From Novakomyces olei (taxonomy: Eukaryota): a stretch of 64,000 nucleotides of DNA. Of this stretch, positions 29,428-60,533 are shown one piece after another. Position numbers and translations under genes: made by a program. The notes under the pieces are model-generated. The model saw only the letters and a list, made by a program, of their open reading frames with translations. It did no database searches and was not told where the DNA came from. Where the stretch lies: assembly GCA_016906335.1 (NCBI GenBank), contig JADEYG010000012.1, positions 1,302,001 to 1,366,000 on the forward strand. Reading direction: 5' to 3'. How positions within the stretch are numbered: the first letter of the stretch is position 1; each line of letters opens with the position of its first letter.

Positions 29428-30252
29428 ATGCCCTGCGACATATTCTATGAGACAACATACAAGACTGCGGTGGAAAGCTGGCTCGAACCTGCGATCGTGA
29501 CAGTTGTCGACTCGCAAAAAAACAGATTGATCACATTTCCTTTTAAATTTTGCCATACTGCCGGTACGCCCAGCGTCAAGAAAGTCGGATACCTGCTCCA
29601 AGTTATCTCGGCGTCTATCACTAACGATCTTGCGACGATTGTGCTGCAATGCGATGAAAGAGCGTGCGACAAGGACGAATTTATAGCTCCGACTACTTAC
29701 ATAATAACATGCCCGCCTGCTGACGAAATATGCTTTCGACCAGGCCCGCAGTGTAAATCTCGAATGCGTCTTTTTTCGGCGTCAATGTCCTCGTCTACTG
29801 TGAGCAATTCTTCAAGGAGCTCTATACGACAAACGAGATTTTGGCTCGAGTGTTTTGCGCGTGATAACGGCCGTTGTATAATATCTGGTAGCCGTGCCTT
29901 GGATTCGAATGAAGCATGCCATATTATTCCATACAGTCTTGGCCAAAACATTTTGTTTGAGCTTACAGGCGGTCTAATTGGCCAATACAGTGTTCAGAAT
30001 GGGTTGACGCTCGAGGTTGGCCTGCACAAGGCTTACGATCAATATAGAATTGGCGTATGGTTTGAAGATGGCCGGTATTATGTTCATGCTTTCTTTCATG
30101 AATTATCGTGTTATCACGGAAACGAAGTTAAATTTGTAGAAATAATACCTGACTCTGAGAAGCCATTTCCTGCTCTGCTTCTCTGGCATTATAGGCAGTG
30201 TGTCATGACGCGTTTCAGAGGCTTTGCTGTCCCCGTTTCAAACATTGGCTGA
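29428..30252 (+). CDS. HNH endonuclease (HNH_2-like) family, copy A, intronless
   Basis: RDNGRCIISG, EACHIIPYS, NGLTLEVGLHKAYD, YHG, LLWHYRQCVMTRFRG; homologous to copies at 37670, 41985, 46603, 48441. Confidence 0.85.
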   Translation: MPCDIFYETTYKTAVESWLEPAIVTVVDSQKNRLITFPFKFCHTAGTPSVKKVGYLLQVISASITNDLATIVLQCDERACDKDEFIAPTTYIITCPPADEICFRPGPQCKSRMRLFSASMSSSTVSNSSRSSIRQTRFWLECFARDNGRCIISGSRALDSNEACHIIPYSLGQNILFELTGGLIGQYSVQNGLTLEVGLHKAYDQYRIGVWFEDGRYYVHAFFHELSCYHGNEVKFVEIIPDSEKPFPALLLWHYRQCVMTRFRGFAVPVSNIG

Positions 30253-30505
30253 CGCTCGATTCGGTCTGCACAAGGCTTATGTTCCGTTTAGAACTGGCAT
30301 ATGGTCTGAAAATGAACGGTAATAGGTTTACGCTTGTTTTCATGAGTTATCGTGCTATCGCGGAAATGAGACCAAAGTTTTACAAATAAATGCCTGAAAT
30401 AAATGCCTGAAATAAATGCCTGAATTGGAGAAGTTTTTTTTCCCGCCTCTACTTCCATATCAGCATTGTGCCACTACGTGTTTCAGAGACGTTCCAATAC
30501 CTGGC
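30246..30505 (+). pseudogene. Decayed tandem duplicate of the 3' end of HNH copy A
   Basis: tgacgctcga..ctgcacaaggctta..tttcatgagttatcgtg..tttcagag aligns to ~30000-30240; stops, indels and a 13-bp x3 expansion at 30384-30422. Confidence 0.8.
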
Positions 30506-30559
30506 TCAAATCGATGTCAATTGAATGGGTTTTTTAATTTGATTTAATCGGTCTAGAAA

Positions 30560-31900
30560 TACTTCAATTATCGTTGACAATGCAAATGCCGCCAAGTGTA
30601 CTGACCTTTCTTGAACGTGTTCCGTGTATTATTATTTCAGTGTTGGTTATTGTTTCTCAATGTAATGTATGCCGCTTTGCAAGATATTCCTGCCTACGTC
30701 GCGTGTCTTTTCCGCGAAGGGCAGCACGAGTCTCAGTGTTTTTTTAATGACTAATATCGCCGATGCAAGTACGCTACGCAGTTGGAGACTGGCCCTTCAT
30801 CTGTACATCTACAGTCACAGTTTATACTGGCTCCGATATTGGCCGTTCCCTGCTTGATCCACCTGGCGCTTGATACATGGGTATTGGGCGATATTACTGT
30901 CGTTGCCCGCATCAACTTTAAATGCTGCAATTTTATGGGTCTTGAGCGTAGAGGATAGAGCTCTATTTCTATCGAATAAAAAAAGAAAACCAACATTAAA
31001 GAAGTTTCTCGAGGGAATGATGGAGAAATAGTGTTAAAATTCAGAATAATCTGATTTAACGATGTTGAAAAAGGCGTTTACTCCCGCAATTTCGCTTGTC
31101 AATGCAGAGATAGTTGGCCATCTGCAATTAAAAGACGGAAATTTAAAAAAAGATCGAAACACGCGGCTTTCGCAGAAACAGAAGCAAAGGCTTTCTAAAT
31201 CTTTTAGATCCATATTAAGCTGATCCGATCCGCGTTCTTTTATTGATGTACTTTGATTTGGATTCCATCGATATTCTATTGGTTTCCGTCAGATTCAAAC
31301 CGATTATCGTCATCTCTATCTCCTTGGACAGTCGGCCAATAGCACATTGATCTCTTTTTGTTTTTGATGTGGGGCAGTTGCCTTGTTTGCTGAATGGGAA
31401 AGATTTTCTGCTCATTTCCCGCTGTTTTACTCTTCTTAAGTCCCTACTGGTGGTCCACGCAATGGGATTTGTTGAGTTTATTTCTTATGCTGCTTTAATG
31501 GCAATATCCTTCTCTTTTATTCAAGTGGCCCATAATCAGTTTCCAGCATCGGCAACGCGTATTGATAACTCGCTACGCCTTCCTACGCTATTCCTTTGCC
31601 GTTGACTGGGACATTCATGGGGTAAGATTGGGAAGCAAAGCCTGACGCAGTATTCAGAGTCCCATTTACTATCATCGGATTTGGACAGTAAGTATTGCAT
31701 CGTAATTGGAGACAGTGGCCAACTAAAACATTGCTCCTTGTTACGAAAGTGCTTGGCAATACAGGCCGAGGGATCGGGAGACGCGTCCGCCAAAGCGGCT
31801 CGTACCGTGGACGCAATAAGCACCGACGCGGTAAAGGATAATTCGGCCACAGCGACTTCAGTAAAACCAACCAATGTGAGACGTATGTGTTGTTTACAAG
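30560..31900 (-). pseudogene. Possible heavily decayed gene of unknown family
   Basis: Patches of coding-like translation (e.g. ORF 31536-31874) broken by stops and frameshifts; intron-like GTAGGG..GCTAAC with no intact AG. No motif recognised. Confidence 0.2.
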
Positions 31901-32905
31901 TTAGCCAGTTCTTTTCACGTTTAAAAATTCCCTACTTGCACGTGAGCCTCAATCGGTTTAAGAAACAATATAGTGGGTATTCAGCATATTCTTGGTCATT
32001 TTCTGGTCCATTAGAGTCTGGACACATCTCTGAGTCTCCTTAATGAGCATTTGTTTCAATCTTAAGCAGTATTATTACCGAAAATGCGGGGTAATAATAG
32101 GGTGACGGATTTTAAGGGCGTAAAAAGTACAGTAATATTAACCACGATGATTCATTTAATTATACATAGATATTTTGTTTACTAAACAGCAATTAAACTT
32201 AAAAGTTTGCTAACATCAAGGTGTATTACAAGGGTAAGAACCAAATAAGCAAGACCCCTTAATGTAATGACAATTTGGAATCTGAACGATGGTAGGCTTT
32301 ACTCTTAAACATCGAGCGCCTAAATGCAATAAAGCTGTAATGATAACATATCACTTACAACTGACATTAATGTCATAAATTTATACTCCTGTCAGCTTTA
32401 TATTGGCTGCCATGTGATTAATTCGTAAGACGACGATATTTTTTCAGTTCCACGGCATATTGCTAACGATTTTTCTGCAAATAAGTCGGAAATTTTTAGT
32501 CGGGCGAAACGTTGATTGATTGTTTAGAATCTGCATATCAAATAGCTCTGAGAATCTCCCTGTCAAGGGATAGTTGCTGCAAGTAATTGCCATCATTAAC
32601 CCTAATGCTCCATCTAAAACCCACCTAAAAATAGGGTTTTCTGTAGATAAGCTATCCTTGAGTCAGAGCCCACGTAAGATAAGCGATAAATATTGGCAAA
32701 AGCTTGCGAAAAAACCCTGTATCTCTTCCAAAGGGAGGACACAGCCGATTGCAACTAATTGACATTTGAACGAAGTGCTTATTTGAAAAGTCAACAGAGC
32801 CCTTTTATTTCTTCTATTAGATCTGGAGGGTTTCAGCATAACGGCAGTACAGTAAGAACCAGTAACAAGAGTCAGCCAACAAGAACAATATCTGTTCAGT
32901 GCAAA

Positions 32906-34262
32906 ATGAACGGCCATGATTACCTATCAGAGAGTATTTTGATTATTGGAGCCGGCGCTTTTGGTAGTTCAACAGCGCTGCATCTTGCCAGACGCGGATT
33001 TAAAAACATTAAAGTTGTCGATCGATTTCCTGTACCTTCGTTTGAAGCCGCTTCGAACGATTACAACAAGGTTATTCGTGCAGATTACGCGTGTCCGTTA
33101 TATACAAATTTAGGCCGTGAAACACTAGACGCATGGACGGATCCCGACAATATTTTGTACGGGCTTTTTCATCGCTCTAAATACGTCCTTTCGGCAGAAA
33201 ACGAATGCAAGCCGTTTTTGCAGCAGTCGATTCAAAACAGTCAAAATGTTGGTATATCCAACATTTCTATTGTTAAAAGCAGTGAAATTGCAGAGCTATT
33301 TCCTGGAGTCTCGAAAAATATTCCTTCTTCGTGGTTTAATTTAGTCAATCCTAACGCAGGATGGGCATTTGCGTCCGAGGCTTTGAAACGGATGGTTGAA
33401 GCTGGTAAAGCGTTAGGTGTCGACTTTGTTACAGGTGATGATGGATATATAAAGCAATTACTTTACGATGAAAACAAGGCTTGTATTGGTGCAATTTCAA
33501 ACAGTGGAATTGCTCACGTTGCTGATAAGACAATCGTTGCAGCAGGCTGTGGTATTTCTAAACTATTGAACGCGGAAAAGCAACTTGTGTCTAAAGCTCA
33601 TTGTTCGGCACATATTCAACTAGACGACGAGGAAGCCAAACATTATGAAAATTTGCCCATATTTTGCAATCTTGAGCAAGGTAACAATTTATGTTTGTTT
33701 TAAATAGGCTGCGTGCTTGTTGTCTAGTTTAATTTGTTATTTATCTTAATTTCTACCCTGTTTTGTTCACTAATTAACCAAAGGTCTTGTATTTCCCCCA
33801 AATGGCGATAATTTGGTAAAAGTGTCTACCTCGCGGCTTATTACAAACTTCAATGGCAACTCTGAATCACACGCAATTTCCAGGTGGGATCATCCAGAGC
33901 TTGGGATTCCGGATATCGTAGAGCATGAGATGCGGGATTTCGTAAGATGCATTCTACCTGAATTGGCTGATCGAGAATGGGCCAGCATAAGAATTTGCTG
34001 GGACGCAGACACTGCCGATGAGCATTTTCTTATCGGACCTCATCCCAATCACAGCAATTTGCACTTGGCTGGCGGAGGCAGTGCGCACGGGTTTAAATTC
34101 CTTCCAATATTGGGTAAATATATTGCTGATTCTTTTGAAGGGATTCTTGACCCGAAAATAGCTAATGTTTGGAAATGGCGCCCGGGAGTAGAAGCAGATG
34201 ATTCGTATCATATTAGCTTGTCCGCTATTCGCCGAGACTTTTCTGATTTTCCTTTGAACTAA
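32906..34262 (+). CDS. FAD-dependent oxidase, fructosyl-amino-acid/sarcosine/pipecolate oxidase family; exons 32906-33680 and 33784-34262
   Basis: IIGAGAFGSSTALHL, ASNDYNKVIR, RICWDADT, GGSAHGFKFLPILG, WKWRP; intron GTAACA..CACTAAT..AAG. Confidence 0.92.
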
Positions 34263-34780
34263 ACAATCAAGTAGAATGTTTGTCTACTGCCATTTGAATA
34301 GTCGGTGGTTATACATGTTTGGTATATAGAACTGTTGGATTTTAATTTCGAATTTTAAATGTATGGTGATTTCCTGAAAAGTTTCATAATTTGACATACC
34401 GCTCTTTAGAAAGATTTTAAAGTCAATCCGAAACAAGTGCCAGCGCTTAGTCTATTTGGCACTAGTCCATATTATTGGAATTTATGTCGGAAACTAAGAC
34501 TTATATGTAAATTAAATTGTTTAATAATAGATATATCCAAAGGCAAACAGTCTGATAGCCCACGTATATGAGAACCGTTTAATCGTCCAAATCCCCCATC
34601 GTTGCTATTATACGCATAAACCCCTTCATAGACACTTTCTCTACCACTGATTCAATCATGTACAAATTGTAAACTTCAAAATGCCAAAACTTCTAAATTA
34701 TACGCAAGAAATCAAAAAAGGGACCAAAATATCCGGGCACAGTTCTAAATATCTACAGCAGGCAATTGCTTGTTCTGAGT

Positions 34781-36357
34781 CTAGACAAGAGACAAGTTCC
34801 AGTGCTGAATACACTTGTCCCAAATGAAGGCGCTAGACCCAGGACCCCGTGGAAGCATATCGCATAAAGATAAATCGCTCCGTTTCCAAACAGTCTCTAT
34901 CGCCTTTCCAGCAGTTTGAACATTTGATGAGGGAAACCATAAAGCTGCCACTGCCTCTATATGCTCCAATACAAAGGCTCTGTCGACTTCAGCGCAAAGG
35001 CAGCCTACAACGAAAATAGCCCATAACGGATAAGGTCGGGCTTTTCCTTCAACCTTAATTTTGCGAAATTCGAGTAAGCAATCACGCACATATCCACTCA
35101 ACCTCGCCGAGTTGAGCTCTTCGCCAAAGAGACCATGAAGGCATAATACTATAGAGGCCTTAAGACTGATTTTTCCGCAAAGCTCTATATATGGATCCCC
35201 GTATGGCTCTATCTGCTGCATTGAACAAAGCCTTTTGTACAAGACTAGGGGAGAAAAAGACGAGCGATCTTTCTGCACAATCCCCCGACATTCAAGAAGT
35301 ATTTCGTGTAGAGTATCAATTAAACTGAACGAGCAAAGCCAACGTACATCAATTATAGAATTTTGAGTAAATTGCTCTTGAGGGAAAGGCCTCCAAGCAG
35401 CGACTGCTTCATCACAAAAGTCAGGTCTCTGCAGCGTCATCCCAACCACCTTACAGAAAAACATGAATCGTTCTATCAACGGTACCGATAGTCGAGCGTG
35501 CTGCATTACGGCCAATGCTCCACGGAAATGAGCAACCCAATCCAAAAGACCATGATCTGCAATTTCGAGCGACATTAATGACGAAATTGCAACGAGCGTC
35601 ATATTACCGGCGCTACCACTTATTATAGAGTGTTCAACTGCCCGAATTGCCTCCTGTTTATACAAATAAAACTCTGGTACATATACTCGCCGTCTTTTTC
35701 CAAACTCGTGTGCTGCTAAAGCAAGCGAGGCATAAAGCACAGTCCGGTCCCCAGAACGTACCATCTCACGATGCTCACGCAGCGCAGAATAATCATTTTC
35801 GTACTTTCTCGGTAAATACTCTTCGCAATAGTATTGTAGTAAGATCTCTTCATTTTGTAACGTGGTGCAGTTAGGATTTGATTCTGTTGATAAAAGGCTT
35901 GGAATTGTGGATGTCCTTCTTGATGAAGAATCGTTGCCATCATTCAGACATGTAGGATTATATACTGGACCATCCAATGGAAAGTCCTTTTTTGAGAGAG
36001 GAATTGGTGCATTATCAGCAAAATCACTTGGATTGATGTTGATGAAAGCCCAGCAAACGGTGGTCGATTTCGAAGAGACAACTGGACAACTTCCTATGGT
36101 TTTTTGTTTCCATACCACAGATTGCTCATATTGGCAAACCGTTGATCGTTTGGAACAAACATCGCACGGATAGCAGCCTGAATTGTAAGAAATAACAAGA
36201 ACAAAATGAGAAATAGGACCAATAAGCTTCAAAATAGAGCTGGACCTAATTAACGACACAATTTACCATTACAACGAATCTTGCGCGAACGACAAGATTT
36301 GCATCGGATTCGCAGTCGAGGTCCTTTACTGCTGGATGATTTCAGTAGTAGAGCCAT
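34781..36357 (-). CDS. Zn(II)2Cys6 transcription factor with fungal_trans_2-type C-terminal region; 2 exons
   Basis: Exon 1 gives CKSCRSRKIRCN; intron (donor 36266) splices to GCYPCDVCSKRSTVC; WVAHFRGA and LWAIFVVG motifs. Confidence 0.85.
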
Positions 36358-37669
36358 ATGCTAAAAATATGACAGTTGTAGTCTATTCACGTCGAAGAGC
36401 ATTTGCCTGTCTAAACATACTGGCTTTGGTGAGTCATCAAGGTATTCGAACGTCTGGCTTTCACTTATTTGGATCTGTCACGCAAAGATTGTAAGTAACG
36501 CTAAATGCGTTGTTTATAGATAAGGCGCCCAAACCCTGACTAACCCTGGTCCTGAACAAAAATAATATTAACCCTAACTGACCTTTTTCAAAAAATATTT
36601 TTATTCCATTTTACAGGCATGCTTTATGACTTGCGTGTGAGCTTTGGAAAGCCTTATGGCATTCTGAATTCTATTTGTAAATAATTGCTACTGCACCCGC
36701 TGAGAAAGCAAAAGAAAATAAAGCAAAAGACACGACTTCCTTGTGACTGTTGAAAGGTTGGCTATCATAGTCAGTCAGTCCTGAAGCAATATTTGTGATG
36801 CCGCGACTAGATTCTTTGAAATCTGATCTTGGTCATTTTAAAATGTCGAGTCTGGAATACTAAAGTTGAGAACTAAATTGAAATTGCTTGCCGAAATTCC
36901 GTTAACTTTCTGTTTTATACAAATAATTGTAACCAATTAAGTCCAATGATTGTACGAGGAAGACTAGAATCAGATAACCCTCTTTAAGCCTGACCGAATT
37001 CTTTGTGAAACCGTAATATCAATCTGGACTTTACGATATGGTTCCAGTTCGTGTGGAAATAATTGAAATTTCCCGTACTTCCAATTTTTTGATATTGAAC
37101 AAGAATTTGGCATCTAAGCTTTGATAAATTCGGTGATAAGCACATCATCGCAATAAGCAGGCTAACTAAGCCAGCCATTTCAGTGAGCCAAAGAAACTGT
37201 GTGGTAAAGGAATGCCCTGAGTTGAATAGAGTAAACTATTGTATAGACCGACATAAATCGCCATAAGCAGAACTGATTAAATCAGCTAATTAAAGCTTTT
37301 AATGTTAAATCAGATACGTTTGTAGAGCTCCACCACGAGAACGACTTGTCTCGCAACGCATCGATAGACAATACGACTTCAGCTGCACCTTCAAGCGTAG
37401 GAACTTTGTGACTTACCAAGTGCAGTAAGCGATACCGCTCATAACCCCAGTCACACAATATAGCGCTTGCTCTTTGCAGGCCAGTAACTCAAAACAAGAG
37501 CGAAACAAGTTGACAAAAAAGACGCATGAGAGGAAAATCAGAACATTAGACGCCTTTGACTATTAAGAGCAGTCAGCGGTAACCCGGGGTTTTTTAAAGC
37601 AAACTGCTTTTATGCCTACAAATATCCGTAGCGTAAAACTTATGACAAGTCTAATTCGAACATAAAAGT

Positions 37670-38491
37670 TTACGAAAGCTCATGCAAGGGTACAGCAAAA
37701 CCCCGTAGCCTCGACATGACACACTGGCTATAATGCCATCGCAGCAGTATTGGGCTAGGCTTCTCATCGTCAGGAATGACAGGTGCAAACTGTATTTCAT
37801 GGCCATGAAACCGGGCATAGCTGCGTAGAAAGCTGTGAATAAAATATCGTCCGTCTTCAACCCATATACCCATCTCGAACCTATCAAATCCCTTATGGGA
37901 GCTGCTATCAAGAGTTAAGCCATTGATTAGATCGTAGAGTGAGATACGGAGTCCCGTGCGCTCAAAGTCGGTTAGTTCGTCAAGAAAAGACTGGCCTAGG
38001 CTAAATGGCACTATATGGCAAGCCTCCACATCAGTCCGCGAGAGTGTCAGCATGCTTCGGCCAGTGTCTCGCGAAAAACACTCAAGGCGGAATAAAGACT
38101 GCAATTCCGAACTCCTTGAAGACCTGCTGGTCGTAGATGCACTATCGCTTATTGGTAAGGTTTTGAATCGAGATTTTCCCTGAGGCCCAGGCCGAAATTT
38201 GATGTCCTCCGCCTTGGGAAATAATAAACTGTACGTAGCGGCAACCAGCTTGTCATCAGAATTGCATGGTGAATCGCCGAGACGCAAATCAAATTCGTCC
38301 TGGTGATTCTCAATGCTTGCGGTCAAAGCGCTTTTCAAGTACGCGACGGTAGAAACTCTTGGTGATCCCGCCTCTGTGCAAAATGCCAAAGGAATAGCAA
38401 GAATAAGTTCTGAGCTAGTATTCACGACGCGCACAATAGGTGGGCGTTTCCAATCGACAATTGTTGTTTTGTAAATCACATTTCCAGGCAT
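37670..38491 (-). CDS. HNH endonuclease family, copy B, intronless
   Basis: EACHIVPFSLG, NGLTLDSSSHKGFD, FHG, LLRWHYSQCVMSRLRG; 273 aa. Confidence 0.85.
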   Translation of the reverse strand: MPGNVIYKTTIVDWKRPPIVRVVNTSSELILAIPLAFCTEAGSPRVSTVAYLKSALTASIENHQDEFDLRLGDSPCNSDDKLVAATYSLLFPKAEDIKFRPGPQGKSRFKTLPISDSASTTSRSSRSSELQSLFRLECFSRDTGRSMLTLSRTDVEACHIVPFSLGQSFLDELTDFERTGLRISLYDLINGLTLDSSSHKGFDRFEMGIWVEDGRYFIHSFLRSYARFHGHEIQFAPVIPDDEKPSPILLRWHYSQCVMSRLRGFAVPLHELS

Positions 38492-39261
38492 ATCGCTGTG
38501 CTACTGCTAGGTAAATGGATCTCTGTCTAATCCGTACAGACAAACCTCCTTCTGGAGGATGCTTACTGCACGTAAAGGTGCAAAGTATGAGATCTACTCA
38601 TTGTTGGAATATCGCTGCAATTTCAAGCATTTGCATTTTGGAGTACTATAGTATAAAATCGTGAAATACACTTAATACTATGAACAATTTTTTTGGCATT
38701 GTATTGTGGAGAGCAAAACATGTGCCGTATTTGTGTTTACGTGTTTACAATAGTATTATGGCTCTGTACCGAGCGTGAAATGTGCCGCTAAAGTCATGCG
38801 GCACTTGAAACATTTATGACGAATTTTCAAATACAATTTGAAACTTACCTATTTTTTTCTGTTTGCACTGGTTGCCACCTCACCCAATCTCTCGCTACCT
38901 ACATTTTACTTGACAACAACTAGGACAGCAGCGTTTTCTGCCGTCTGTGATCAGATGCTTCAACCAGAAATACTTGGTGGACGTCTATTATTTGAAACTT
39001 TATTGAAATTTCAAATTTGATATTGAACGTATTTTCGGCCACATTCAAATTAGTGCGGTATCGTACCAGCGTAGAAGCCGTAACCTTTTGGTGAATTATC
39101 CGATAACAAGAATATATGGCCGGCTGACTATCGAAATGCTTCTTCCCTATTTTTACTGCTGTACCGCAGTCTTTTTGTTATTATTAGTAGGAAAAATATA
39201 TGTGATATAATCGATATATATGAACTGGGGAGGTCACTTTGAGAATCGCGAATAATAACAA

Positions 39262-40435
39262 ATGAGACGGAAAAGCTTGAAGCGGGCCAGAAAAGCCGAA
39301 CATCGAGAGACACTGGATACAGAAGAAACCAAAGCAAAACAAAGCAATGACTTATACTCTACAGGGCAGAACTCGGTTGCTGCTGCATGTTCGTTTAAGC
39401 CTGAATCATTTGCTACTGCGGTAATTGCATGGCTTCGCTCAACAACATCAGAGTCTGTCTCTGTTGTATCTAATTCAGGTGTGACTATTTGCGCAATCCC
39501 AGCAGCCTTTATACAGGACATTGATCATGCTGATTGCCAATATCTAATATTTGTTGTTTCTTCGATTGTGAAGAACAAAGGGACATTAGAATTGAACGGC
39601 GTGAAATGTGGACTTCAGGAAAAATTACAAATCGCGTCTTACACTTATAACATTAAGGGTATCTTCGTTTTACCTTTCATCCCCTTTAATGCTTTAGATG
39701 ACTGCGGTATTCAGCTACACGAAGGCCCAGAGTCCAAAAACCCTGCATTGCCTTTCAAACGGCCCAATATCGACGAATATTCGTCCACATATAGCAAATC
39801 TTCTCGAGATTCTTCTACTCAAGTAAGGTTTCATTTACCTTGATAATGGCAGTGTTCTCCTAATACGTATTTTGCTTAGAACCGATTCCGAAATTTGCTT
39901 GGATATAGAGATGGTGGTTGCCTCATATCGGGCCTTTCCATGATCAAAGACGGATGTGAAGCCTGCCATATTATCCCAAAAAGCAGAGGCAATGAAGTAG
40001 GTTTGGTCTTTCGTAAATCTTCTTTACCATTTATGCTTTAATTCATTTTCTTTAATAAATTGGGGCTTTATGTTTCAGCTTACCGAGTTTCTGTAGCTTC
40101 TTAGGCGACTGTTCCAAGACGCTATCGCATTAATGGTGGATATTGACGACATCCGGAATGGACTCATATTGGAATCTGGACTGCATAAGCAGTTCGACAA
40201 ATACAAAATTGGGATATATTATAGGGTACTCCTAGCAAAATGTTTCTAAATGCTAAATTCTTTGAAGGATGGCGATTACGAGATACATTGTTTTGAGTAT
40301 TTTCCTCAGTATCATGGGCAAAAGTTAAGACTTAATACAAATTACCGTGAATACTGGCCTTGGAAGGAATGCTTAGATTGGCATTACAGGCAATGCGTAA
40401 TGGCGCGACTTCGTGTTCATTCTTCTTTTATTTAG
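39262..40435 (+). CDS. HNH endonuclease family, copy C, divergent and intron-containing; introns 39659-39697 (probable), 39823-39879, 39997-40096, 40226-40267
   Basis: Spliced product reads ...STQ|NRFRNLLGYRDGGCLISG...EACHIIPKSRGNE|LLRR...NGLILESGLHKQFDKYKIGIYYR|DGDYEIHCF...LDWHYRQCVMARLR; exon lengths 117/129/168 keep frame. Start codon uncertain. Confidence 0.8.
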
Positions 40436-40840
40436 CGGGGATACTTGGTATCGCATATGAGGGGTCTACATGAACTTTTGGCATGTCATATTGTGCCATA
40501 CAGCTTGGGAGGGTCTTTCCTCGATAAGGTTACCGGTTATGGCGATGGAGGACGTCAGATCAGCTTATCTAGTGTTAATAATGGCTTAACGCCGAGTAGA
40601 AACTTGCTTTCAGTGTTTGACCGGTACCAATTAAGTATTTGGGTGGAAGATGGGGAGTCTTATGTTCACCCATTTTTCGCTCGCCAGGCCGAGTTTCACG
40701 GGGAGCGGCTTAAATGATTCGAGGATGGGTCTGCCAGCGAAAAGCCTGATCCGCAACTGTTACAATGGCATTACTAGCAATGTGTCATGGCGCGGATTCG
40801 AGGTTTCAAAGTTTCTATGCCGGCTGACGATCCCTCCTAA
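40436..40840 (+). pseudogene. 5'-truncated HNH pseudogene (copy D), closest to copy E
   Basis: LVSHMR..ACHIVPYSLG..NGLT..FD..WHY*QCVMARIRGFKVSM; in-frame stops at 40715 (W to *) and 40775 (Q to *); conserved second His replaced by Leu. Confidence 0.88.
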
Positions 40841-41984
40841 ACCGCGAGTGTTCTACTGAAAGGATCCTATCAGAATGCTTTTTGCAGTCCTACCTCGGTT
40901 TAATTATTTTTTTATACAATGTATTATAATGAGGCGAGAAAATATCACAGGACTTTAATGTTCATATTGATTTTACTTTTTGATGCCCTTCTAAAAGGTT
41001 TCTTATATTTCTTCTTATAGTTCATTTAATCTATTTTGAATATTGCCATATTGTTTTGATTCATAAGGATATTTTCTATCTCTGCAGACTGAATAGTATG
41101 AATTCTGGTTCAAAGCCATAATGAAAATTGTATCTTGGACCATTTGGCTTGGTACCAAGATCTACCTCTACATAGCGTTTAAAAGGGAGAGTAAGTCTGG
41201 GCTGGTAAGACAATTTTTTTTTGAATATTCAAATCATCTCCCGTGAGGCAATACAGTTTCGAACACTAATCTTTGCTTTTTGGTATGGACGTTTTTGTAG
41301 TAAGCTGCTATGCAGAAAGTGAACACTTTTGATATAAAGACTTAAATTTTAGAATAATCTCAATACCTTTTTTGTCACTTTTGTTTCAGGTATTTTAACT
41401 TTATCAAATCCGGATAGTAACCAGGTCCAAAAACAGACATGCTGAAGCGAGAGCATTACAAGCGTGCTCGAAACAACGAAAACTTTCTATAAACTCCAGG
41501 ACAAACTTTTCACATCTCTATACATTATTTCCCTCTATAGACGTATGCATTTGCCTATACATAAATTTACGCGAAACCACAATGGAATCGAACTGGAGCA
41601 TGCAAAATGGCCATTTCGGCTTGAACATCCAGCGGCGAGAACTGGTGGTGGGTTAGTAACCATGGATGAAATGGAGCACACAAAAAAATTTTCAGTGCCA
41701 CTAAACGAGAGCGAAACAAAACCGTTGGAGAAAAACAATATATAATAGGGCATCAAAAAAAATAGTAAAAGAATGAAGAAAATTCAATGCTGCTAAAGCA
41801 CTAGAATCAGAAGCCTATGCCCAGTCCGCTCGCCAGCGCACTTTTTTCATTGTCCGCAAGTGAATGCTCCAAAAACACTTTTTGCAAGTAAAAAAAAATG
41901 TCATGCGTGTATAGAGCTTTCCGCCCAACACCCAGCGGTCGCTTATCAAGCCCATATCGCCCAAATACTCCAGGCAAGCACCTC

Positions 41985-42821
41985 CTAGAATGGAGCACGA
42001 TTAATCATGGAAACCTTAAACCCCCTAAACCGCGCCATTATGCACTGCTGGTAATGCCATCTCAGTAGAACTGGGTCGGGCTTTTCCGTGGCCTGGACAT
42101 CAACAAACCATCTGAGCCGCTTCCCGTGATAACGGATTTGACCACTGAGAAAGGAATGCACATAATATTCGTCTCCTTCGACCCATATGCCAAACTCATA
42201 ACGATCAAAAACAGAGTGTAATCCTTTGCTTAAACACAAGCCATCTTTGACACTGTAGAGGCCTATTCTGGGCCCATTGTTCTCATAGTCGGTCACACGA
42301 TCCAGGAAAGACTGTCCCAGGCTGTAGGGCACGATATGGCAAGCCTCGAGTTCCGAAATATTTCTAATGTGCGAAACCAAGCATCCCCCAGAATCACGGC
42401 CAAAAGTGGCCAAGCGGAACGTCGATTGCCGAGCCGAGCTTCGTGAAGATCTACTCACTGTCGACTGAGAGGGTACGGTCGAAAGGTTCTTTGAGAGCGA
42501 TTTTCCTTGCGGCCCGCTTCGAAATTGCATTTCGCGCGCCACTGGGCGATCTAAAACATACGTCGCAGCTTCAAGCTCATCACTGGGACTGCAGAGTTTG
42601 TTCCTTATGGAGATTTGCAGCTGTTCGCGATCGCCGTCGGTCACGATCACGCTGTCCACAATAAAGTAAAGAAATTGCACAGTTCCGACAGAACTGCAAC
42701 GGGCCTTTTCAATAAATAGAAAAGGCACAGAGGCAAACTCCACTCCATCAGAATCCACCAGCTTGATAGAATTTCCTCCCCATGCCTCTACGCTAGTTTC
42801 ATAGTCAAGCGAATGTGCCAT
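41985..42821 (-). CDS. HNH endonuclease family, copy E, intronless
   Basis: RDSGGCLVS, EACHIVPYSLG, DGLCLSKGLHSVFD, WHYQQCIMARFRG; ATG at 42821. Confidence 0.85.
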   Translation of the reverse strand: MAHSLDYETSVEAWGGNSIKLVDSDGVEFASVPFLFIEKARCSSVGTVQFLYFIVDSVIVTDGDREQLQISIRNKLCSPSDELEAATYVLDRPVAREMQFRSGPQGKSLSKNLSTVPSQSTVSRSSRSSARQSTFRLATFGRDSGGCLVSHIRNISELEACHIVPYSLGQSFLDRVTDYENNGPRIGLYSVKDGLCLSKGLHSVFDRYEFGIWVEGDEYYVHSFLSGQIRYHGKRLRWFVDVQATEKPDPVLLRWHYQQCIMARFRGFKVSMINRAPF

Positions 42822-43858
42822 AGCACATTGGGGAGAGAGGGCACCTGCCGACTCAAAGATACGCACCCATGTATTACTTGTAATATATAAATTATGTACA
42901 CTAAGATTTGGCCCTGATTAGGTTAGGCAGAAATTACAGCTAAATATAAAACTTAATTTGGGAATATGGAGAGACGTAAGAATATATTCCATTCAAGACG
43001 GACGGAATCATGGCAAACCTCCATTTAGGCGCAACATGATGATTTTCTCACAGGTCAAAATGATCTGCAGGTCAAAATGATCTGAATTTAAAAGCAGTTA
43101 CGCGAACTTGGACAGCTATTTGACAGCGTCCGCAAAGAGTGAGGACTGGGGGAAAGACGTACGCGTTTGGTACTAATACATCGGTGCTGGTTGCGACAGT
43201 GTGCTTGCTTTTGTGAACGTGCAGCAAGGTTTTTGGGTGACGTTTTGTTATCAATGGTCTGATTGCGTCTAATCTTGTGGCGATTCGCCAGATAGGTTAT
43301 AAGCTCATATAACGAGAAGTGGAACGATGCACAGGGCCGCCCTATAATTTCAGTACGCACTAAGAATGCGCGCGTTAATCACAGACGCGTAATGTCCAAC
43401 AGCAGCTCTTGCACAATCAGCCGTATGAATGTTCATCTCGGCGGTAATACGGATTGAGATTGCTGGAGGGCCACAGTATTTTGCAGATCAGTTTTCAGTA
43501 TAGTCCACCCGTTCTTTGGCGGATTATAGTGTCAAGTCTGCTAGGTCAAGCTCACGATTTGAAGCGTTAGCTATACATCCACTAGCCGAAATAATTAAGG
43601 ATTAGGTAATCCAGCTTAAATTGAGTTTTGATTATTTTCGTCTCGGATTCTTTTAACAAAGTACTCAATCCTGAGACTCACGGCTCTTGTAAGACTTGGT
43701 GCAGAAGCAAACTTTTGATGCTATTTGCTCCTGGCTGATTGTTTTGAATTTTCAAAGTAGTTTATTATTGCGCTAAAAAACTATGGAAATCTACATAAAA
43801 AAGACCTCAATACTCACCGGCACATCTCATATGACACTGATGAATTAGATTCACCGCG

Positions 43859-44817
43859 TGTCAGTATAAGAGGTGTCGGTCAGAGGGATCTCTAAGGCAC
43901 TGACGTGTCATATGCGCCGGTGGACGTTGTGACTCTATTATTGAACGAATACACACAAGAACGGTGCAAATAGCAATCAGAACAATAAGAGTGGGTCACC
44001 AGCGGTAAGGTCCTGCTGTGAGCACTAGGCCAGCGGTGTCCCTCCAAGATCAACTTTCAAATCCATAGTGCTCCAGCTCAATACAAACAAGATCAAGCCT
44101 GAGAGCACCCCCAGCTGGCTATACAGCACAGAAACTGATGAAGCTCGATCTTGCTGTACAAGCGGAATGGAAATCAGGCCAATTCATGGAAAACCGTGTT
44201 CCAACGCATACAACTGCCAAATACCAAATCAACTAGCCCAAAGCCACCCCTCTATGCCTAGCGGAAATCTGCCCAGTCCTAAAGCCACAGTCGGCGATAG
44301 CGGTAGTCCTTGTCCGGGCCTGAGACATAGAGGGGCCCCGAACGTGCCGTCTCCAAAGTCAATGCAGGGCCAAAAAATCACCGAAAAACCTGGAAAGACT
44401 CCAAAAAAGGGAGAAAAGGCCACGCCGGTATCGAACACCCATTACCGAGCGGAAAACAAGCCCTGAAACCACAGGTTTGAGCGGACAGAGTCCGTACCCC
44501 GGCTAAAGGTGATTTACCAGGTAACAAACAAGTGCGGGAAATAGCGTCCGGACCTCGGGATCCCGAAGGATGGAGAACTGGGGGAGCGAAACCACCTGGC
44601 TTTATACCCTGGGCAAAAGGCCTCTGGCAAATTAGCAATCACAGAAACGTTCTAATGTCCTCAATTATGGTTGCGAAAACGTGTAAAATACTCAAAAAAT
44701 TCGACGACAATCACAGAAACGTTCTAATTCCCTCAATATTTATTCCGAAAAAGTGTAAATTTGCATGAAAGAGTCGCGCAGATCCTGTTTCTGTGTTCAT
44801 ATTTATCTATCCCGACA
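43859..44817 (-). mobile_element. Candidate solo LTR (~960 bp)
   Basis: TGTC...GACA termini; flanks cgcg / cgtg (4-bp TSD with one mismatch); internal direct repeat caatcacagaaacgttctaat x2; minus-strand TATAAA ~44605; GC-richer than flanks; minus-strand start TGTCGGGATA is shared with 59090. Confidence 0.45.
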
Positions 44818-45699
44818 CGTGAAATTGAGGCAGATTATGTTTTCATGACGATTAGCCTGTTTCGGGTTATAAATCAATTTTTGGGCCGTATATGATTGGT
44901 CAGTCTATTGTATTTAGCACGCTTTCGTTCTCTGTGTTCCAAATAAGTAATAGCCCTAATCGCGTTTCCGTGATTTTAATTTCGGCTCGCTTTAATTCAT
45001 ATTAGCAAGTAATACGTTCTAATTAAAATGTTGGTAAATAGCTCATACTTGATTTATTATTGGCATCGAGACATATAAGTAATCCAAAAACATACACAAT
45101 AAACGCGCCTTAAATACTAGAATATTTATGTAACTGAGGGGTAAAGATACTTGAAATTAATAGACATGCTCGATAACGTTTAATAGTTTACGAATCTCCA
45201 CAGCTGTAAATTCGAGCACGCGCAAGCACGCGATTGCAGATTTTATGCGAACTAGAAAAGCTTTAGACTGATTGATTGATGGACTGATTGACTAACTGCG
45301 TTTTGCCTTTGGCCAAATCAAAAATTAAGTTATACTTTAAATTATAACGTGCTTATTTGATTTTTTACCAAGCCCACGTACAACGCTATAACATGTCAGA
45401 AAAATCTCCCGCGGGCTTATCTGACTTCTTATGGGACGCGAACGTAATGGAAATTGACAATAGTAGGCTATTGGAGGATTCTAGGAGATTTTTTTAAAAA
45501 ATATTTTGCATGTAAGCCTCAGGATTTATTGTGTATCGCTCTTAAATTCATATGTCAATGGCTTACTTCGGCTAAGGTTATCCTGGACGATACGCACGAA
45601 TTATCCGTATTTAAAATAATCAAGTGGATCATTTGGAGATTTGATTGATACAGTGAAAAAGAATTTATGAAGTAGTAAATAAAATAGGCTTCATGTGCC

Positions 45700-46560
45700 A
45701 GCCTCGATTTCAAGTTCTTTTGCAGCAATTGCGTCAATTAGAAGATCAGCGAAACATCGGTCAAACACAATTCCGTAAACTATTCTAGCGCCTTCTCAGC
45801 ATTGCCAGACATTGGCCCGTTTTGATATTCGATGTAGGTATTCTGTCGTCACCTCCGTTTATACAAATATCACCGGCGACATTGAGGCACTTCATACTTC
45901 CTCCGTGACCTGGTCTGAGTTCACGGCTCCCGGCGACTGTTCAGATTCCAGACGCAGAGTCCACCTTGCTAGGAGCTCGGAATAGCCATTATTTAATCCT
46001 TCATATTGACTAAAAAGATTTGGGATGTATGTGCATACATCACATGGCGGCTATTTCCCGTATCAAGGTTCCAGGCACCAATGTTTTGCTTGGCGCTATG
46101 CGCATAGGAATCGGGTATCAGATAAGAGTTGCCTTCCTGGTCCCAGCCTCATGAATCAGCCAGTACACCTGAACAGTGGCAGGTCAAAACGACGGGCGCA
46201 AGCCGGCACTCGAACGCAGCCCACTCATACTTATTTCTTTCGTCTAAAGCCACATTCCAGCTAACACGCCATTCCAACAAATAACGCTGTATCAGTCGCG
46301 ACTACCCCTCACTTTGGATATATTTCTTGAGAGCACTTGTCGCGATATCACCGCCACTGCCATTGCCATCTCCATATAACCCCAGCGCTCGTACAGCCCC
46401 TTCATCACCGGCACTGCCAGGTGACAGAGTTGGAATCGCCAGCAGTAGCTGCAATCGTGGAGGCCGCGACTCCGCCAAAAACACATTTCAAAAAGACACA
46501 AAGTCCTAGTCGTGTTGTGCTGAAATACGCAAGTGACAGGATTAAAATTAAAACCCATAC
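45700..46560 (-). pseudogene. Decayed F-box/WD40-repeat gene (Cdc4/Met30-like architecture)
   Basis: Minus-strand pieces: QRYLLEWRVSWN, IGAWNLDTGNSRHVMYAHTSQI, GGLCVWNLNS, GHGGSMKCLNVAGDICINGGDD..NIKTGQCLAML; several stops and frameshifts. Confidence 0.65.
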
Positions 46561-46602
46561 GGAGATCAGTAGGCTAGCTATCAAAAAACTTGAGTAAGTA
46601 AC

Positions 46603-47421
46603 TCATATGTTGAATCCCCGAAATCGTGCCATAAGACATTGATCATAATGCCAGTTGATAAGACGAGAATCGGGCTGGCGCGACTTATCCTCAAAATTTC
46701 TCAAATATGCAAACCTGCCATGAAATTGCTTGGCCTCTCTGCCAAAAGAATGAATAATCAAGCGCTCCCCATACACATAAAAGCCCAGTTTGTATCTATC
46801 ATATAAGCTGTGGATGCGCTTTTCAAGTACAATTCCATCTCGCTCACTGTACAGTGTAACCGATACTCGCTCTCCGGTGATTCTGTCCAAATATTGCTGT
46901 CCCAAGCTATACGGCACAATATGAGCAGCTGTTAATTCATCAGCATCGTATGCACCAGTCACAATGCACATTCCATCCCGAAGGAAAAGTTTCTCACGGA
47001 ATGCAGACTGGCGGCTAGAAGATCTTGAAGACCGGCTGACTGTTGACATGCCATCAGTATCGTGATATTTCTTCGATATTGATTTTCCCTGTGGCCCTGG
47101 GCGAAATTGAAGCAACTCATGTGGTGGTTCTTTCAAAACGTAAGTGGCAGCAATTAAAGACTCTTCCGGCCCTACAGGCCGACCACTTTTCGTGAATAGT
47201 TCAATGTGCGGTGGCAAGTTAGAAACAATCCCCCTGAGAACACGATGCAAATAGGCCACTGTATCGACCGGGTTTGATCCCGTAGTCACGAATGCAAGCG
47301 GTACCGACGCGAACGAAGAACCCCGTGATGTCTCCACATATGCGAAACCTTTATCGGGCCAGAATTCAGAGCTGATGTCGTAATCAATATCTTTGATCCA
47401 TCCTTCTTCCTCTCCTGTCAT
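46603..47421 (-). CDS. HNH endonuclease family, copy F, intronless
   Basis: RDGMCIVTG, AAHIVPYSLG, DGIVLEKRIHSLYD, FHG, INWHYDQCLMARFRG; 272 aa. Confidence 0.87.
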   Translation of the reverse strand: MTGEEEGWIKDIDYDISSEFWPDKGFAYVETSRGSSFASVPLAFVTTGSNPVDTVAYLHRVLRGIVSNLPPHIELFTKSGRPVGPEESLIAATYVLKEPPHELLQFRPGPQGKSISKKYHDTDGMSTVSRSSRSSSRQSAFREKLFLRDGMCIVTGAYDADELTAAHIVPYSLGQQYLDRITGERVSVTLYSERDGIVLEKRIHSLYDRYKLGFYVYGERLIIHSFGREAKQFHGRFAYLRNFEDKSRQPDSRLINWHYDQCLMARFRGFNI

Positions 47422-48440
47422 GTTTGCGAAAAAGACGTCCAGATCGTGGTATCTATTATATAAATCAAATAGTGTATTTATTTATATGCATGTCCGTACG
47501 CAAGGCTAGATATATTAAGACGAAATTATGGCGAAATTCTACATATGTGTAATGTGATTCTTATTATGTGGAAGTTTAGTCAGGGTTTTTGTGTTTCCTT
47601 TACCATAATTTTATATTGGAAAATCATTAATATATGAGAGCGGGGCCAGGGTTAGGGTTATTAAGTCTGAAATAAAGGTAGGGTCAAGCAAAAACGCGTT
47701 TCAGGCGGCGGGAATAACTCTAGCGTTCGCTATTGCTTCAGCTAACGCGACATGGTAAATTATTATTCTTATATTTTCAACACTTTCTTGATATGATACT
47801 TAATAAAAAAATATACGAAGATGCTCGTCAGCCAACCAAAACACAAAGGCATATTGCATAAACATACAAATGTACAAATGTACAATGCCTTTGATTTTTA
47901 CTTGAACTCTTATGCGGAACTGGCAGATTCCAATCGTTGAAATCATTTTGATCGAAATCTATACAATGCACTAATTGAAACAAATACACTTAAACAGTAA
48001 AACAAAGTGTCACGTGACCATGTATTAATTTCGTTTACTTCACAAAGTCAAAACGCGAATTAATAATAAAATGTATGCTAGATGCAATATCATTAATTCG
48101 CTGATAACGCGAATGCGCTTGTTTCTACAACGAACAGCACAACTAAAGGGCACAGAACTATGGGTTTGTATATTGTATAGGATAAAGACTAACAAAAGAT
48201 TGTCGTTGACTTTTGTATGGCTATTTCTTTCCCTGGTTCGAAATTGCCATAGAGTAATAATTGAGTAAATTTAGTGAATTTGTTTCCAATCATTTGCGTT
48301 CGATTATATCATATTATATCATATTATATTACAAAAAAATAGATCTCACAAAGAAGCGACTAGCCAAGGCTAAGAGCACACCAAGTTTTACTCAAAATAC
48401 AAATATATTTTCGCCCAAGCGCCAGGTCAAAATTTTCATT

Positions 48441-49281
48441 ATGGAGGAGCACGAGCTAGACTATCGGACAAGTACAATGGGATGGGGCCCACCAATAGCG
48501 AGAGTACTTGACTCGGAAGGCGTTCAGTTTGTGACTATTCCTCTTGATTTGGTCGGCAAGGCTGGTAGTGAGGGAGTTACGGTGGTGCGTTACGGTGGTG
48601 CGTTACCTCTAGTTTGTGGTAGAAAGCACTATTGAAAACGGTAAGCAAGATATTGAGTTAGTCCGTGCAGGTACAATTTGCAAAAGTACCGATCAATTGC
48701 TTTCGGGGGATACCCTGACACGTCCAAGCGCAGACAATCTCAAGTTTCGGTGTGGCCCACAAGGTAAATCATTATCGCGAAATTTCACGCCTTCAGGGTC
48801 AGATTCAACTGTGAGCCGATCATCTCGAAGCTCCACTCGACAATCGCAGTTTCGCATCGAGACAATCAGTCGCGATTCGGGTTCTTGCTTAATCACAAAA
48901 GAGCGAATGCGTTCGAGGCTTGTTACATGCCACATTGTACCATATAGCCTTGGGCAGTCCTTTCTTAATTCAGTAACTAATTTTGTCAATACTGGCCTAC
49001 AAATTGGCCTGTACGATGTCCATAATGGGCTCACTTTACGCAGGGACCTGCATTTCAATTTTGATCATTATGAAATAGGTATTTGGACGGAGAATGGGGA
49101 GTATTTCGTACACTCTTTTCTCGGAGACGCAGATTACCATGGCAAAAAGCTGATATGGTTCTCTGAGATACCGGAAAGTGAGAAGCCTTTGCCTTTACTG
49201 CTTCAATGGCATTATCAACAGTGTATAATGACGCGCTACCGAGGGTTTAAGGTGTCTATGAGTTTTCATGATGCTCATTAG
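48441..49281 (+). pseudogene. HNH endonuclease family, copy G, full length but inactivated
   Basis: ATG 48441 (MEEHELDYRTS); 13-bp duplication 48576-48601 shifts the frame, plus in-frame TAG at 48610; downstream TCHIVPYSLG..NGLTLRRDLHFNFD..WHYQQC intact. Confidence 0.87.
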
Positions 49282-60226: not shown

Positions 60227-60441
60227 TGTTGAATATAGAAGGTTGGAATTTGCTCTTATGGTAGATTAAATGAATTAGATACTCTAGATTGCTTCAGCTG
60301 AATCCCCCCCGAGGGTGTGAGGGTTCGCTTGAGCTATATATATGTAACTATGTATTTTTGAGTGAGTATTCTGTAAAGCTAAAAGTCAAACAACTGACAC
60401 TCATGGTTGAGTTGTCTTAGCCGGTCAGTGAGTCGGCGAGT

Positions 60442-60533
<92 letters not shown>

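Follow-up and report, generated by a model that had tools for sequence, protein, structure and literature searches.

In the 64,000-nt stretch of Novakomyces olei DNA analysed here (the window), positions 29428-49281 hold eight HNH_2 (PF13391) paralogues, designated c1 to c8. A tblastn search of the window with four intact copies found members of the family at these eight places and nowhere else, which bears out the array of eight described in a first-pass annotation of the same DNA. Four of the genes are intact and intronless: c1 (29428-30252, plus strand, 274 aa), an open reading frame with an HNH_2 E-value of 3.1e-9 and a score of 296 bits against the family HMM; c3 (37670-38491, minus strand, 273 aa), which carries Ser in place of the near-invariant Cys147 equivalent; c6 (41985-42821, minus strand, 278 aa), the copy used for the structure model; and c7 (46603-47421, minus strand, 272 aa).

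A fifth copy, c4 (39262-40435, plus strand), is the most divergent. The ORF at 39262-39843, listed earlier as an intact gene, covers only its first exon and is the one ORF of seven without an HNH_2 match. A stop-free frame of 324 aa emerges only once three GT..AG stretches (39823-39879, 39997-40096 and 40226-40267) are removed, and these candidate introns contain CTAAT/GCTAAAT motifs resembling those in the introns of neighbouring genes. The spliced frame, which has an N-terminal extension rich in Lys/Arg, matches positions 6-261 of the family HMM with 212 bits, and c4 is probably intact, its coding frame interrupted by three short predicted introns. The original count of five intact and three broken copies can stand if c4 is read as spliced, with c2, c5 and c8 dead.

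The dead copies are c2 (30244-30511, plus strand, with 30263 as an alternative start), c5 (40439-40834, plus strand) and c8 (48441-49281, plus strand). The first is a C-terminal fragment that represents a partial tandem duplicate of the c1 3' end; in the window self-comparison its DNA at 30244-30397 is 77% identical to c1 at 29999-30152. It had been thought to align at the DNA level alone, but tblastn also aligns it with c1 as protein (47% aa identity over 85 aa, E 7e-15). Several stops interrupt c2, some key residues are lost, and a 13-nt tandem repeat (3.2 units) occupies 30384-30424. Adjoining c4, c5 is a C-terminal half-copy with two in-frame stops that shares 60.6% identity with c6 residues 146-277 (tblastn) and has Leu at the H202 equivalent. 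In c8 a 13-nt stretch is perfectly duplicated in tandem (48576-48601), which throws the gene out of frame, and an additional in-frame TAG lies at 48609-48611. Downstream of these lesions the frame is clean, reaches 238 bits with the family HMM and keeps every key residue; the inactivation of c8 is recent.

The spacer between c6 and c7 (43360-46700) is repeat-rich, with dispersed repeats that may be transposon relics, and holds no long ORF matching the family. Contig depths in the source run (X1) add up over this spacer to between 2 and 10 times that of single-copy DNA, with many variant contigs; depth is raised at 43.4-46.7 kb and at 47.4-48.0 kb, as for dispersed repeats, and the HNH genes themselves lie at single-copy depth. 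Another element of the surroundings, the segment at 32906-34262 previously labelled a pseudogene, is in our reading an intact gene for a FAD-oxidoreductase, interrupted by a single 103-nt intron.

Predicted domains and catalytic residues

The proposed HNH_2 membership was confirmed by Pfam HMM searches, in which 6 of the 7 ORFs exceeded the cut-off of 21 bits (25.4-37.5 bits; E 1.3e-5 to 2.1e-9), as well as by matches in all 40 aligned family members. An AlphaFold (AF2) model of c6 (pLDDT 90.5, pTM 0.89) predicts a protein of two domains, an N-terminal ubiquitin-like beta-grasp and a C-terminal HNH_2 domain. Residues 128-268 superimpose in VIA-align on TagI (PDB 6ghs) with a Z of 10.4 (116 aligned residues, 23% identity), and the HNH domain on VcaM4I (PDB 6yex) with a Z of 9.3; the beta-beta-alpha-metal fold suggested earlier is thus upheld as a prediction. 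Residues 15-97 match ubiquitin/SUMO with Z-values of 7 to 7.6 (rmsd 2.2-2.4 over 66-67 residues), middling scores that, according to the tool, are common for small domains. Foldseek on the same model returned the same two groups, HNH enzymes and ubiquitin-like proteins, at weak E-values, and VcaM4I was the only match when the family profile was compared with solved chains (E 0.0073).

The two domains are joined by a conserved linker, GP.GK ... STxSxSSRSS..Q..FR, and among the five intact copies identity amounts to 25% in the ubiquitin-like domain, 49% in the linker and 43% in the HNH domain. At E<=1, none of the 40 family members matched any Pfam N-terminal family, including the DUF7881, ubiquitin and Crinkler header models, and no PUA, SRA or EVE match was found among them. 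Inspection by eye of the first 60 residues revealed no hydrophobic signal peptide.

In the profile alignment, H162, N/D193, H202 and D206 of the family correspond to H224, N241, D250 and D254 of VcaM4I, in which H224A, D250A and D254A are reported to impair cleavage (PMC7897488). Equivalents of all four residues are kept in c1, c3, c4, c6, c7 and c8, with Asp at the 'N' position (193) in c6 and c7, and part of the set is lost in c5 and c2. Across the 40 sequences, little or no variation is seen at the general-base His or at either metal-ligand position, and G103, P104, H162, P165, H222, H232 and G233 are invariant across the family. We infer that the family proteins are metal-dependent DNA nucleases.

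Both best matches of the C-terminal domain, in structure and in sequence, are bacterial modification-dependent type IV HNH enzymes. TagI and VcaM4I share with the family a helix Q..FR..L, a C.(V/I)(T/S)G strand, the catalytic His and an NGL...H/D..FD metal site, and also a two-domain layout, which in the enzymes consists of an N-terminal sensor followed by HNH. The N-domain of VcaM4I, together with its linker, is described as keeping the nuclease inactive (PMC7897488). The resemblance does not extend to the sensor: the N-domain of TagI and VcaM4I is an SRA/EVE/PUA base reader, whereas that of the family is a predicted ubiquitin-like beta-grasp that matches ubiquitin-like folds and not the PUA-superfamily reader of type IV enzymes. 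The family also differs in its eukaryotic host and in the absence of a defence-island context.

Relatives and age of the copies

Sequence comparison indicates that the family is fungus-wide, occurring in Cryptococcus, Rhodotorula, Tilletia and chytrids. Members include Cryptococcus neoformans CNAG_02013, Rhodotorula toruloides RHTO0S45e00100g1_1 and proteins of Jaminaea rosea and Tilletia, all uncharacterised, which can be aligned with the window copies over their whole length (24-31% identity); our literature search found no study of the ubiquitin-like HNH_2 family. The Tilletia members differ from the window copies in their long N-terminal extensions, and in some of them the N-terminus resembles a histone-H3 tail, pointing to chromatin.

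More remote relatives (9 of 53) carry DUF7881 (PF25324). Proteins combining DUF7881 with HNH_2 occur in the Ascomycota (Lipomyces doorenjongii, Penicillium, Pseudogymnoascus and Rasamsonia), where all are annotated as hypothetical. They equal the window family in length and similarly place a domain of ~75 aa (residues 5-85) before HNH_2. Profile-profile comparison aligned them with the family at a probability of 99.8% (E 6e-28) over 227 columns, colinear from residue 18 to 262; the N-domain alone compared with DUF7881 by hhalign gave a probability of 6% (P 0.006), which is not significant by itself. The DUF7881 region of one protein, P0100, was modelled as a beta-grasp (mean pLDDT 45.5 for the model, 61-87 over the domain), and the 50 structural matches listed for it are all beta-grasp and mostly ubiquitin-like (Z 5.3-6.8). 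The window family is thus joined to these Ascomycota proteins at the profile level, and both N-domains model as ubiquitin-like. Two differences set the groups apart: the DUF7881 HMM misses all 40 window-family members, and the linker motif GP.GK..SSRSS occurs only in the branch to which the window copies belong.

The intact copies share 35-45% aa identity pairwise (tblastn), with scarcely any identity at the DNA level. Each intact pair shows saturation of synonymous sites (pS 0.77-0.85), and pN is 0.37-0.51. Several copies are closer to proteins of other organisms than to their neighbours in the tree. Thus c3 and P0008, which are 71% identical and both lack the near-invariant Cys147, are sisters (support 100/99), as are c7 and P0010 at 59% identity (100/100), and c4 groups with P0018 with support. 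Since c3, c7 and c4 each pair with other organisms' proteins, the window copies need at least four changes of label in the tree. Saturated synonymous sites and these groupings lead us to read the array as an old tandem cluster rather than a recent burst, and the local amplification envisaged in the first-pass annotation does not hold as a recent event. The clade (c6,c5),c8 consists of window copies alone (100/98; c5 with c6 at 96/84). In two large, word-limited searches the best partners of c6 and c1 reached 42% and 33% identity, respectively, none of them close. Birth-and-death of copies is supported by these sequences because two of the three members of the window-only clade c6/c5/c8 are dead, and the gene turnover noted at the outset is likewise evident in the mixture of intact and dead copies, three of them dead and one recently so.

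Proposed genetic conflict and alternative readings

On balance, the evidence leans modestly towards an old cluster of ubiquitin-like plus HNH_2 nucleases whose paralogues differ in recognition and are kept by recurrent genetic conflict. Each product, of ~270 aa, would comprise the ubiquitin-like domain, the conserved linker and an HNH_2 His-Me-finger nuclease. The fast-diverging ubiquitin-like domain may serve as a targeting or gating module in the place where the bacterial enzymes hold their modified-base reader, so that the paralogues would differ in the target recognised rather than in activity. Conflict, in which the nucleases might ward off invading or selfish DNA or else attack competitors, would then maintain the family, and not housekeeping. 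The conflict first proposed is a reasonable way to read the locus and not a result. A non-conflict cellular function would, through purifying selection, also give saturated pS, lower pN and orthologue-like partners, and the observed pN, far below saturated pS, together with the partners of c3 and c7, fits plain purifying selection. The loss of three copies out of eight could also stem from a relaxed need for them instead of an arms race, and PADLOC defence models matched none of the four copies searched.

A possible but rather doubtful alternative, raised in the first-pass annotation, is that these are Crinkler/CR-type effectors, in which a ubiquitin-like header would mediate unconventional export and entry and the HNH domain would damage target DNA, the array forming an arsenal against competitors or hosts. 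The layout is alike: CR effectors combine a ubiquitin-like header, the fold predicted for the N-domain of the window family, with an enzymatic C-terminus, possibly an HNH nuclease (PMC5289972). 'CR-HNH' effectors appear under PF13391 in Table 1 of a His-Me finger survey (PMC5714182), Plasmopara CRNs carry HNH_2 (PMC8044898), and AeCRN13 and BdCRN13 are reported to be DNA-binding and to set off a DNA-damage response (PMC5289972), all of which count in favour. CR effectors with CR-HNH also form multigene families and lack a classical signal peptide (Zhang et al. 2016, via PMC5289972 and PMC5714182). The pattern of variation, however, is reversed: Crinklers are described as joining a conserved header to diverse C-terminal toxin domains, whereas in the window family the HNH domain is constant (43%) and the header most variable (25%). 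Against the Crinkler lead we also count the lack of any hit to the header model among the 40 members and of a visible hydrophobic signal peptide.

It is unlikely that the copies play an ordinary cellular part, as nucleases or chromatin factors in repair, recombination or nucleic-acid turnover, being ancient duplicates that sub-functionalised in the absence of conflict. The age of the duplicates, with pN far below saturated pS, would suit such a role, as would the partners of c3 and c7 in other organisms, the span of the family over chytrids, Basidiomycota and Ascomycota, and the histone-like N-terminus of some Tilletia members. However, three copies out of eight have died, one recently, and neither c1 nor the c6 lineage has a close partner (33% and 42% in the two word-limited searches). 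The setting also contains repeats and possible transposon remains, and both the number of copies and their sequence vary far more than is normal for core repair genes.

Self-mobilisation, by which free-standing homing endonucleases or transposon-borne nucleases would have copied themselves into the region, is highly improbable. Homing endonucleases can carry HNH domains (PMC5714182, Table 1), and the copies are found on both strands amid repeats; nevertheless, the window self-comparison found neither repeats flanking the HNH genes nor DNA common to the copies beyond their coding parts, the genes are at single-copy depth, and they are free-standing, with no intron or intein host gene. Recent movement is further contradicted by 35-45% aa identity between copies with saturated synonymous sites. 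Scarcely credible is the proposal that the HNH domain has lost its cutting activity, leaving the proteins to work solely as adaptors in DNA binding or in the ubiquitin pathway, for which the missing Cys147 of c3 and P0008 and the Asp of c6 and c7 might speak, given that the general-base His and metal-ligand positions are (nearly) invariant in 40 sequences and kept in the five intact copies.

A polymorphic-toxin locus, also suggested initially, is not supported: an all-versus-all comparison of 928 stop-to-stop ORFs of the window (>=35 aa), which very short or fast-evolving partners of the HNH copies would escape, uncovered no other family repeated in their vicinity and hence no co-amplified candidate for a cognate immunity gene beside each of the HNH copies. 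The sole non-HNH paralogous pair in the window encodes sugar transporters, one at 14 kb and the other at 25 kb.

The array and the state of its copies

A tblastn search of the whole window, with the four long ORFs of the array as queries, located relatives of the family at eight sites between 29428 and 49281 and nowhere else in the window. Four of the sites hold uninterrupted ORFs, namely c1 (29428–30252, + strand), c3 (37670–38491, − strand), c6 (41985–42821, − strand) and c7 (46603–47421, − strand), whose products range from 272 to 278 aa. Pfam placed HNH_2 above threshold in six of the seven ORFs tested, bearing out the domain assignment that the first-pass annotation had made from the sequence alone. 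The three copies that it had called broken are likewise broken. The first, c2 (30244–30511, + strand), is a partial tandem duplicate of the c1 3′ end (77% identity over 155 nt; 47% over 85 aa) and carries multiple stops, and the second, c5 (40439–40834, + strand), retains only its C-terminal half, where two stops fall in frame. The third, c8 (48441–49281, + strand), is full length; its frame is shifted by a perfect 13-nt tandem duplication at 48576–48601, and an in-frame TAG at 48609–48611 constitutes a second lesion. The remaining 239 codons of c8 contain no further lesion and match the family profile at 238 bits, so its death looks recent. Perfect 13-nt tandem repeats, of differing units, lie in both dead c2 (30384–30424, 3.2 copies) and dead c8 (48576–48606, 2.4 copies), and slippage-type duplication seems to be a recurrent lesion at this array.

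The earlier count of five intact genes holds with one amendment: c4, counted among them from 39262 on the + strand, opens into a continuous frame only after removal of putative introns. The ORF at 39262–39843 has no HNH domain by Pfam, and the rest of the gene lies in other frames, interrupted by three stretches with GT..AG borders. Putative intron 1 occupies 39823–39879 (57 nt; GTAAGG...CTAAT...TTAG), intron 2 39997–40096 (100 nt; GT..AG) and intron 3 40226–40267 (42 nt, with GCTAAAT ahead of the AG); similar introns are found in the neighboring carboxylase (GTAATT...GCTAAAT...TTAG) and oxidoreductase (GTAACA...CTAAT...AAAG) genes. Removal of the three stretches leaves 975 nt with zero internal stops, coding for 324 aa, and raises the match to the family profile from 91 to 212 bits (positions 6–261), which argues that c4 is most likely an intact gene with three predicted introns. 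Its N-terminal extension is rich in Lys and Arg.

A predicted ubiquitin-like domain ahead of HNH_2

Searched against 1.84 billion cluster representatives, c6 retrieved 156 proteins at E ≤ 1e-3 and 13 at E ≤ 1e-30; among the matches listed, about 45 cover most of its length, as read by eye from the table. In 40 full-length aligned sequences, G103, P104, H162, P165, H222, H232 and G233 are invariant, and C147, H202, D206 and C260 are nearly so, as are the motifs SSRSS..Q..FR and WHY.QC. HNH_2 was identified in all 40 members and was their sole Pfam domain, with no N-domain match at E ≤ 1. The ESM Atlas, queried with the N-domain alone, gave no usable match. Several N-domain matches to two long bacterial Thr/Ser-rich repeat proteins, P0068 and P0110, were rejected as compositional upon reading of the sequences.

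An AlphaFold2 model of c6 built on the 40-sequence alignment (pLDDT 90.5, pTM 0.89) predicts two domains. Residues 128–268 match the HNH domain of TagI (Z 10.4 over 116 residues, 23% identity) and that of VcaM4I (Z 9.3), in agreement with the HNH fold that the first-pass annotation had proposed to check by structure prediction. Residues 15–97 match ubiquitin, SUMO, NEDD8 and ISG15 (Z ~7 to 7.6, rmsd 2.2–2.4 over 66–67 residues), in an alignment that spans all of ubiquitin. Foldseek recovered the same TagI/VcaM4I-like HNH and ubiquitin-like groups, with weak E-values. The high pTM suggests that the ubiquitin-like domain packs against the nuclease in the c6 model; prediction of a c6 homodimer (score 0.55, one control at 0.62) is evidence neither way.

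Compared with solved chains, the family profile matched VcaM4I alone (E 0.0073), pairing H162, N/D193, H202 and D206 with VcaM4I H224, N241, D250 and D254. In the VcaM4I report, the HNH residues are given as H224, N241 and D250, D254 is proposed to be a substitute metal ligand, and cleavage was impaired upon H224A, D250A or D254A substitution (PMC7897488). Equivalents of all four family positions are present in the five intact copies and in c8; position 202 is Leu in c5, and most of these residues are gone from c2. PADLOC defence models matched none of four copies tested, and the single NCBIfam match, below threshold, was to a putative restriction endonuclease family.

HNH_2 proteins of ~300 aa are frequent across fungal genomes and carry no annotation beyond 'hypothetical', and the genes of the array add to a family that already exists in fungi but is unstudied. 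Its named members come from Cryptococcus neoformans (CNAG_02013), Rhodotorula toruloides, Jaminaea rosea, several Tilletia species, Auricularia, Mycena and two chytrids, and are without exception annotated as 'hypothetical' or 'HNH nuclease domain-containing'. Among 53 remoter matches, 44 carry HNH_2 and nine, from Lipomyces, Penicillium, Pseudogymnoascus and Rasamsonia, carry DUF7881 (PF25324) at residues 5–85, the place of the ubiquitin-like domain in the window family. Profile–profile comparison of the window family with the DUF7881 group was colinear over 227 columns at a probability of 99.8%; the N-domains alone reached 6% (P 0.006). A model of the DUF7881 protein P0100, built on a shallow alignment, is poor overall (pLDDT 45.5), with residues 11–80 at 61–87, and a structure search with these residues returned beta-grasp folds, mostly ubiquitin-like, in 50 of the 50 matches listed (Z 5.3–6.8). 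Given the colinear profile match and the beta-grasp model of the DUF7881 region, an architecture with a ubiquitin-like module ahead of HNH_2 appears to be general among fungi. We found no publication on CNAG_02013, on DUF7881 or on a ubiquitin-like domain joined to an HNH endonuclease in fungi; the proteins may be listed in Crinkler work or in the supplements of a His-Me finger survey (groups 6 and 38).

A metagenome scan yielded 19 loci, all of them distant (GC 46–54%), with 26–46% identity over partial matches except in L019, where a match of 21 residues reaches 76%; none of the 19 provided synteny. One distant fungal contig, L008, bears two family fragments within ~6 kb, at 8–289 (− strand) and 4252–4760 (+ strand), with matches split as if by introns, which hints that clustering and intron-bearing forms of the family also occur outside the window.

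Age and turnover of the array

The first-pass annotation had envisaged local amplification, diversification and repeated inactivation. Turnover and divergence stand; a recent local burst does not. Pairs of intact copies share 35–45% aa identity, and their synonymous sites are saturated (pS 0.77–0.85, pN 0.37–0.51), with the Nei–Gojobori dN/dS incalculable for every full-copy pair (pS > 0.75); the sole pair with a value is c1 and dead c2 (dS 0.79, dN/dS 0.34). In a maximum-likelihood tree of 46 sequences, c3 groups with P0008, a protein of another organism (100/99; 71% identity), with c1 sister to both (99/96), and c7 and c4 group with the foreign proteins P0010 (100/100; 59%) and P0018 (100/96; 36%), respectively. 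Copies c6, c5 and c8 form a clade made up of window copies alone (100/98), and the window label requires at least four changes. Since c3, c7 and c4 pair with proteins of other organisms, several array lineages predate the split from those organisms, and the array is not the product of one recent burst. Two word-limited searches of 5.8 billion proteins, which missed P0008, gave no close partner for c6 or c1, with best matches of 42% and 33%, respectively.

Gene turnover is real: within the three-member c6 clade only c6 itself survives intact, and the partial duplicate c2 is dead as well. Mean identity among the five intact copies is 25% in the ubiquitin-like domain, as against 49% in the linker and 43% in HNH, placing the diversification in the N-domain.

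Proposed role and the surrounding window

The descriptive part of our explanation, comprising predicted architecture, intact active site, age and turnover, is advanced with high confidence; the statement as a whole, with a conflict or defence role included, is put at somewhat better than even. That role is the best, though unproven, reading. The family protein would cut DNA in a metal-dependent manner, and its N-terminal domain would, by analogy with VcaM4I, set the time or place of its action. In VcaM4I, the reader domain together with the linker is reported to obstruct the DNA-binding face, and without the two the nuclease becomes non-specific and toxic (PMC7897488).

It is enticing to speculate further, although we consider it rather unlikely, that the family is a fungal, and hence eukaryotic, counterpart of bacterial type IV restriction. 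Latent HNH nucleases would have a fast-diversifying ubiquitin-like domain as sensor or gate in place of the modified-base reader, and arrays would supply a germline-encoded sensor repertoire against nucleic acids or chromatin of invading or selfish origin, such as transposons, viruses or foreign nuclei. Four of 178 sequences (P0058, P0077, P0166 and P0168, from Tilletia indica, T. walkeri, T. controversa and T. laevis) carry an ARK[ST]TGG.APR motif at residue 8, and P0077 has three further repeats of a related TAMKSTGGIAPR unit. These N-termini bear a close resemblance to the histone H3 N-terminal tail, raising the possibility of a histone-tail mimicry that brings the nuclease to chromatin, which under type IV-like restriction would represent one route; they may instead be a gene-model artefact.

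Crinkler/CR effectors are reported to have an architecture equal to that of the window family (PMC5289972; PMC5714182, Table 1). No sequence match placing the window family in the Crinkler header family was found, and its pattern of variation is the reverse of theirs. As for self-mobilisation and a polymorphic toxin, both raised earlier, the copies share no flanking DNA within the window, contig depth over the array genes is single-copy, and no second co-amplified family was found; these results argue against mobility and against a toxin–immunity layout.

The locus adds a confident two-domain model, predicted to join a ubiquitin-like domain to a restriction-enzyme-like HNH, its connection to DUF7881, and a compact, naturally occurring set of paralogues, five intact and three dead, within one 20-kb segment of a small yeast-like genome. 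If the ubiquitin-like domain gates the nuclease, the family would offer a simple system for eukaryotic reuse of bacterial defence nucleases and bear on the mechanism of Crinkler-type effectors.

The window is fungal and yeast-like (~41% GC, long ORFs, introns few and short) and codes for Zn2Cys6 regulators, sugar transporters and short-chain dehydrogenases. Two apparent ORFs at 32906–34262 (+ strand), in a region said to hold pseudogenes, are probably one intact gene for a FAD-dependent oxidoreductase of the DAO family, the frame being continuous across a 103-nt GT..AG intron (33681–33783). On the + strand at 53695–58838, a LamB/YcsF gene precedes a biotin carboxylase/carboxyltransferase/biotinyl gene split by short introns, forming a 5-oxoprolinase or urea-carboxylase-like cluster; the best match of the carboxylase has 47% identity, and named matches, from Pezizomycotina and Kwoniella, 40–43%, so that the database searched contains no close named relative. 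In X1, the apparent source run, summed contig depth over 43360–46700 and 47360–48025 reaches 2–10× that of single-copy sequence, and variant contigs are numerous there; the tracts read as dispersed repeats, perhaps relics of transposons. A contig form without 47754–47998 occurs in X1 and in X2, a run of another study, in which eight listed pieces of 633–1,860 nt, at low depth, have zero letters differing from the window. Runs X3 and X4, from the same study as X2, contain next to none of the window sequence, which shows nothing; all four runs are DNA contigs. A Ty1/copia-type element at 60614–64000 (− strand) extends past the right-hand end of the window; its pol frame (gag-pre-integrase, integrase, RVT_2) stays open for more than 1099 aa. 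The element adjoins AT-rich tandem repeats at 60016–60532 (a 15-nt unit × 13.8; TAT × 30). A perfect 78-nt tandem duplication (2.0 copies) lies in intergenic sequence at 16355–16510, upstream of a short-chain dehydrogenase gene.
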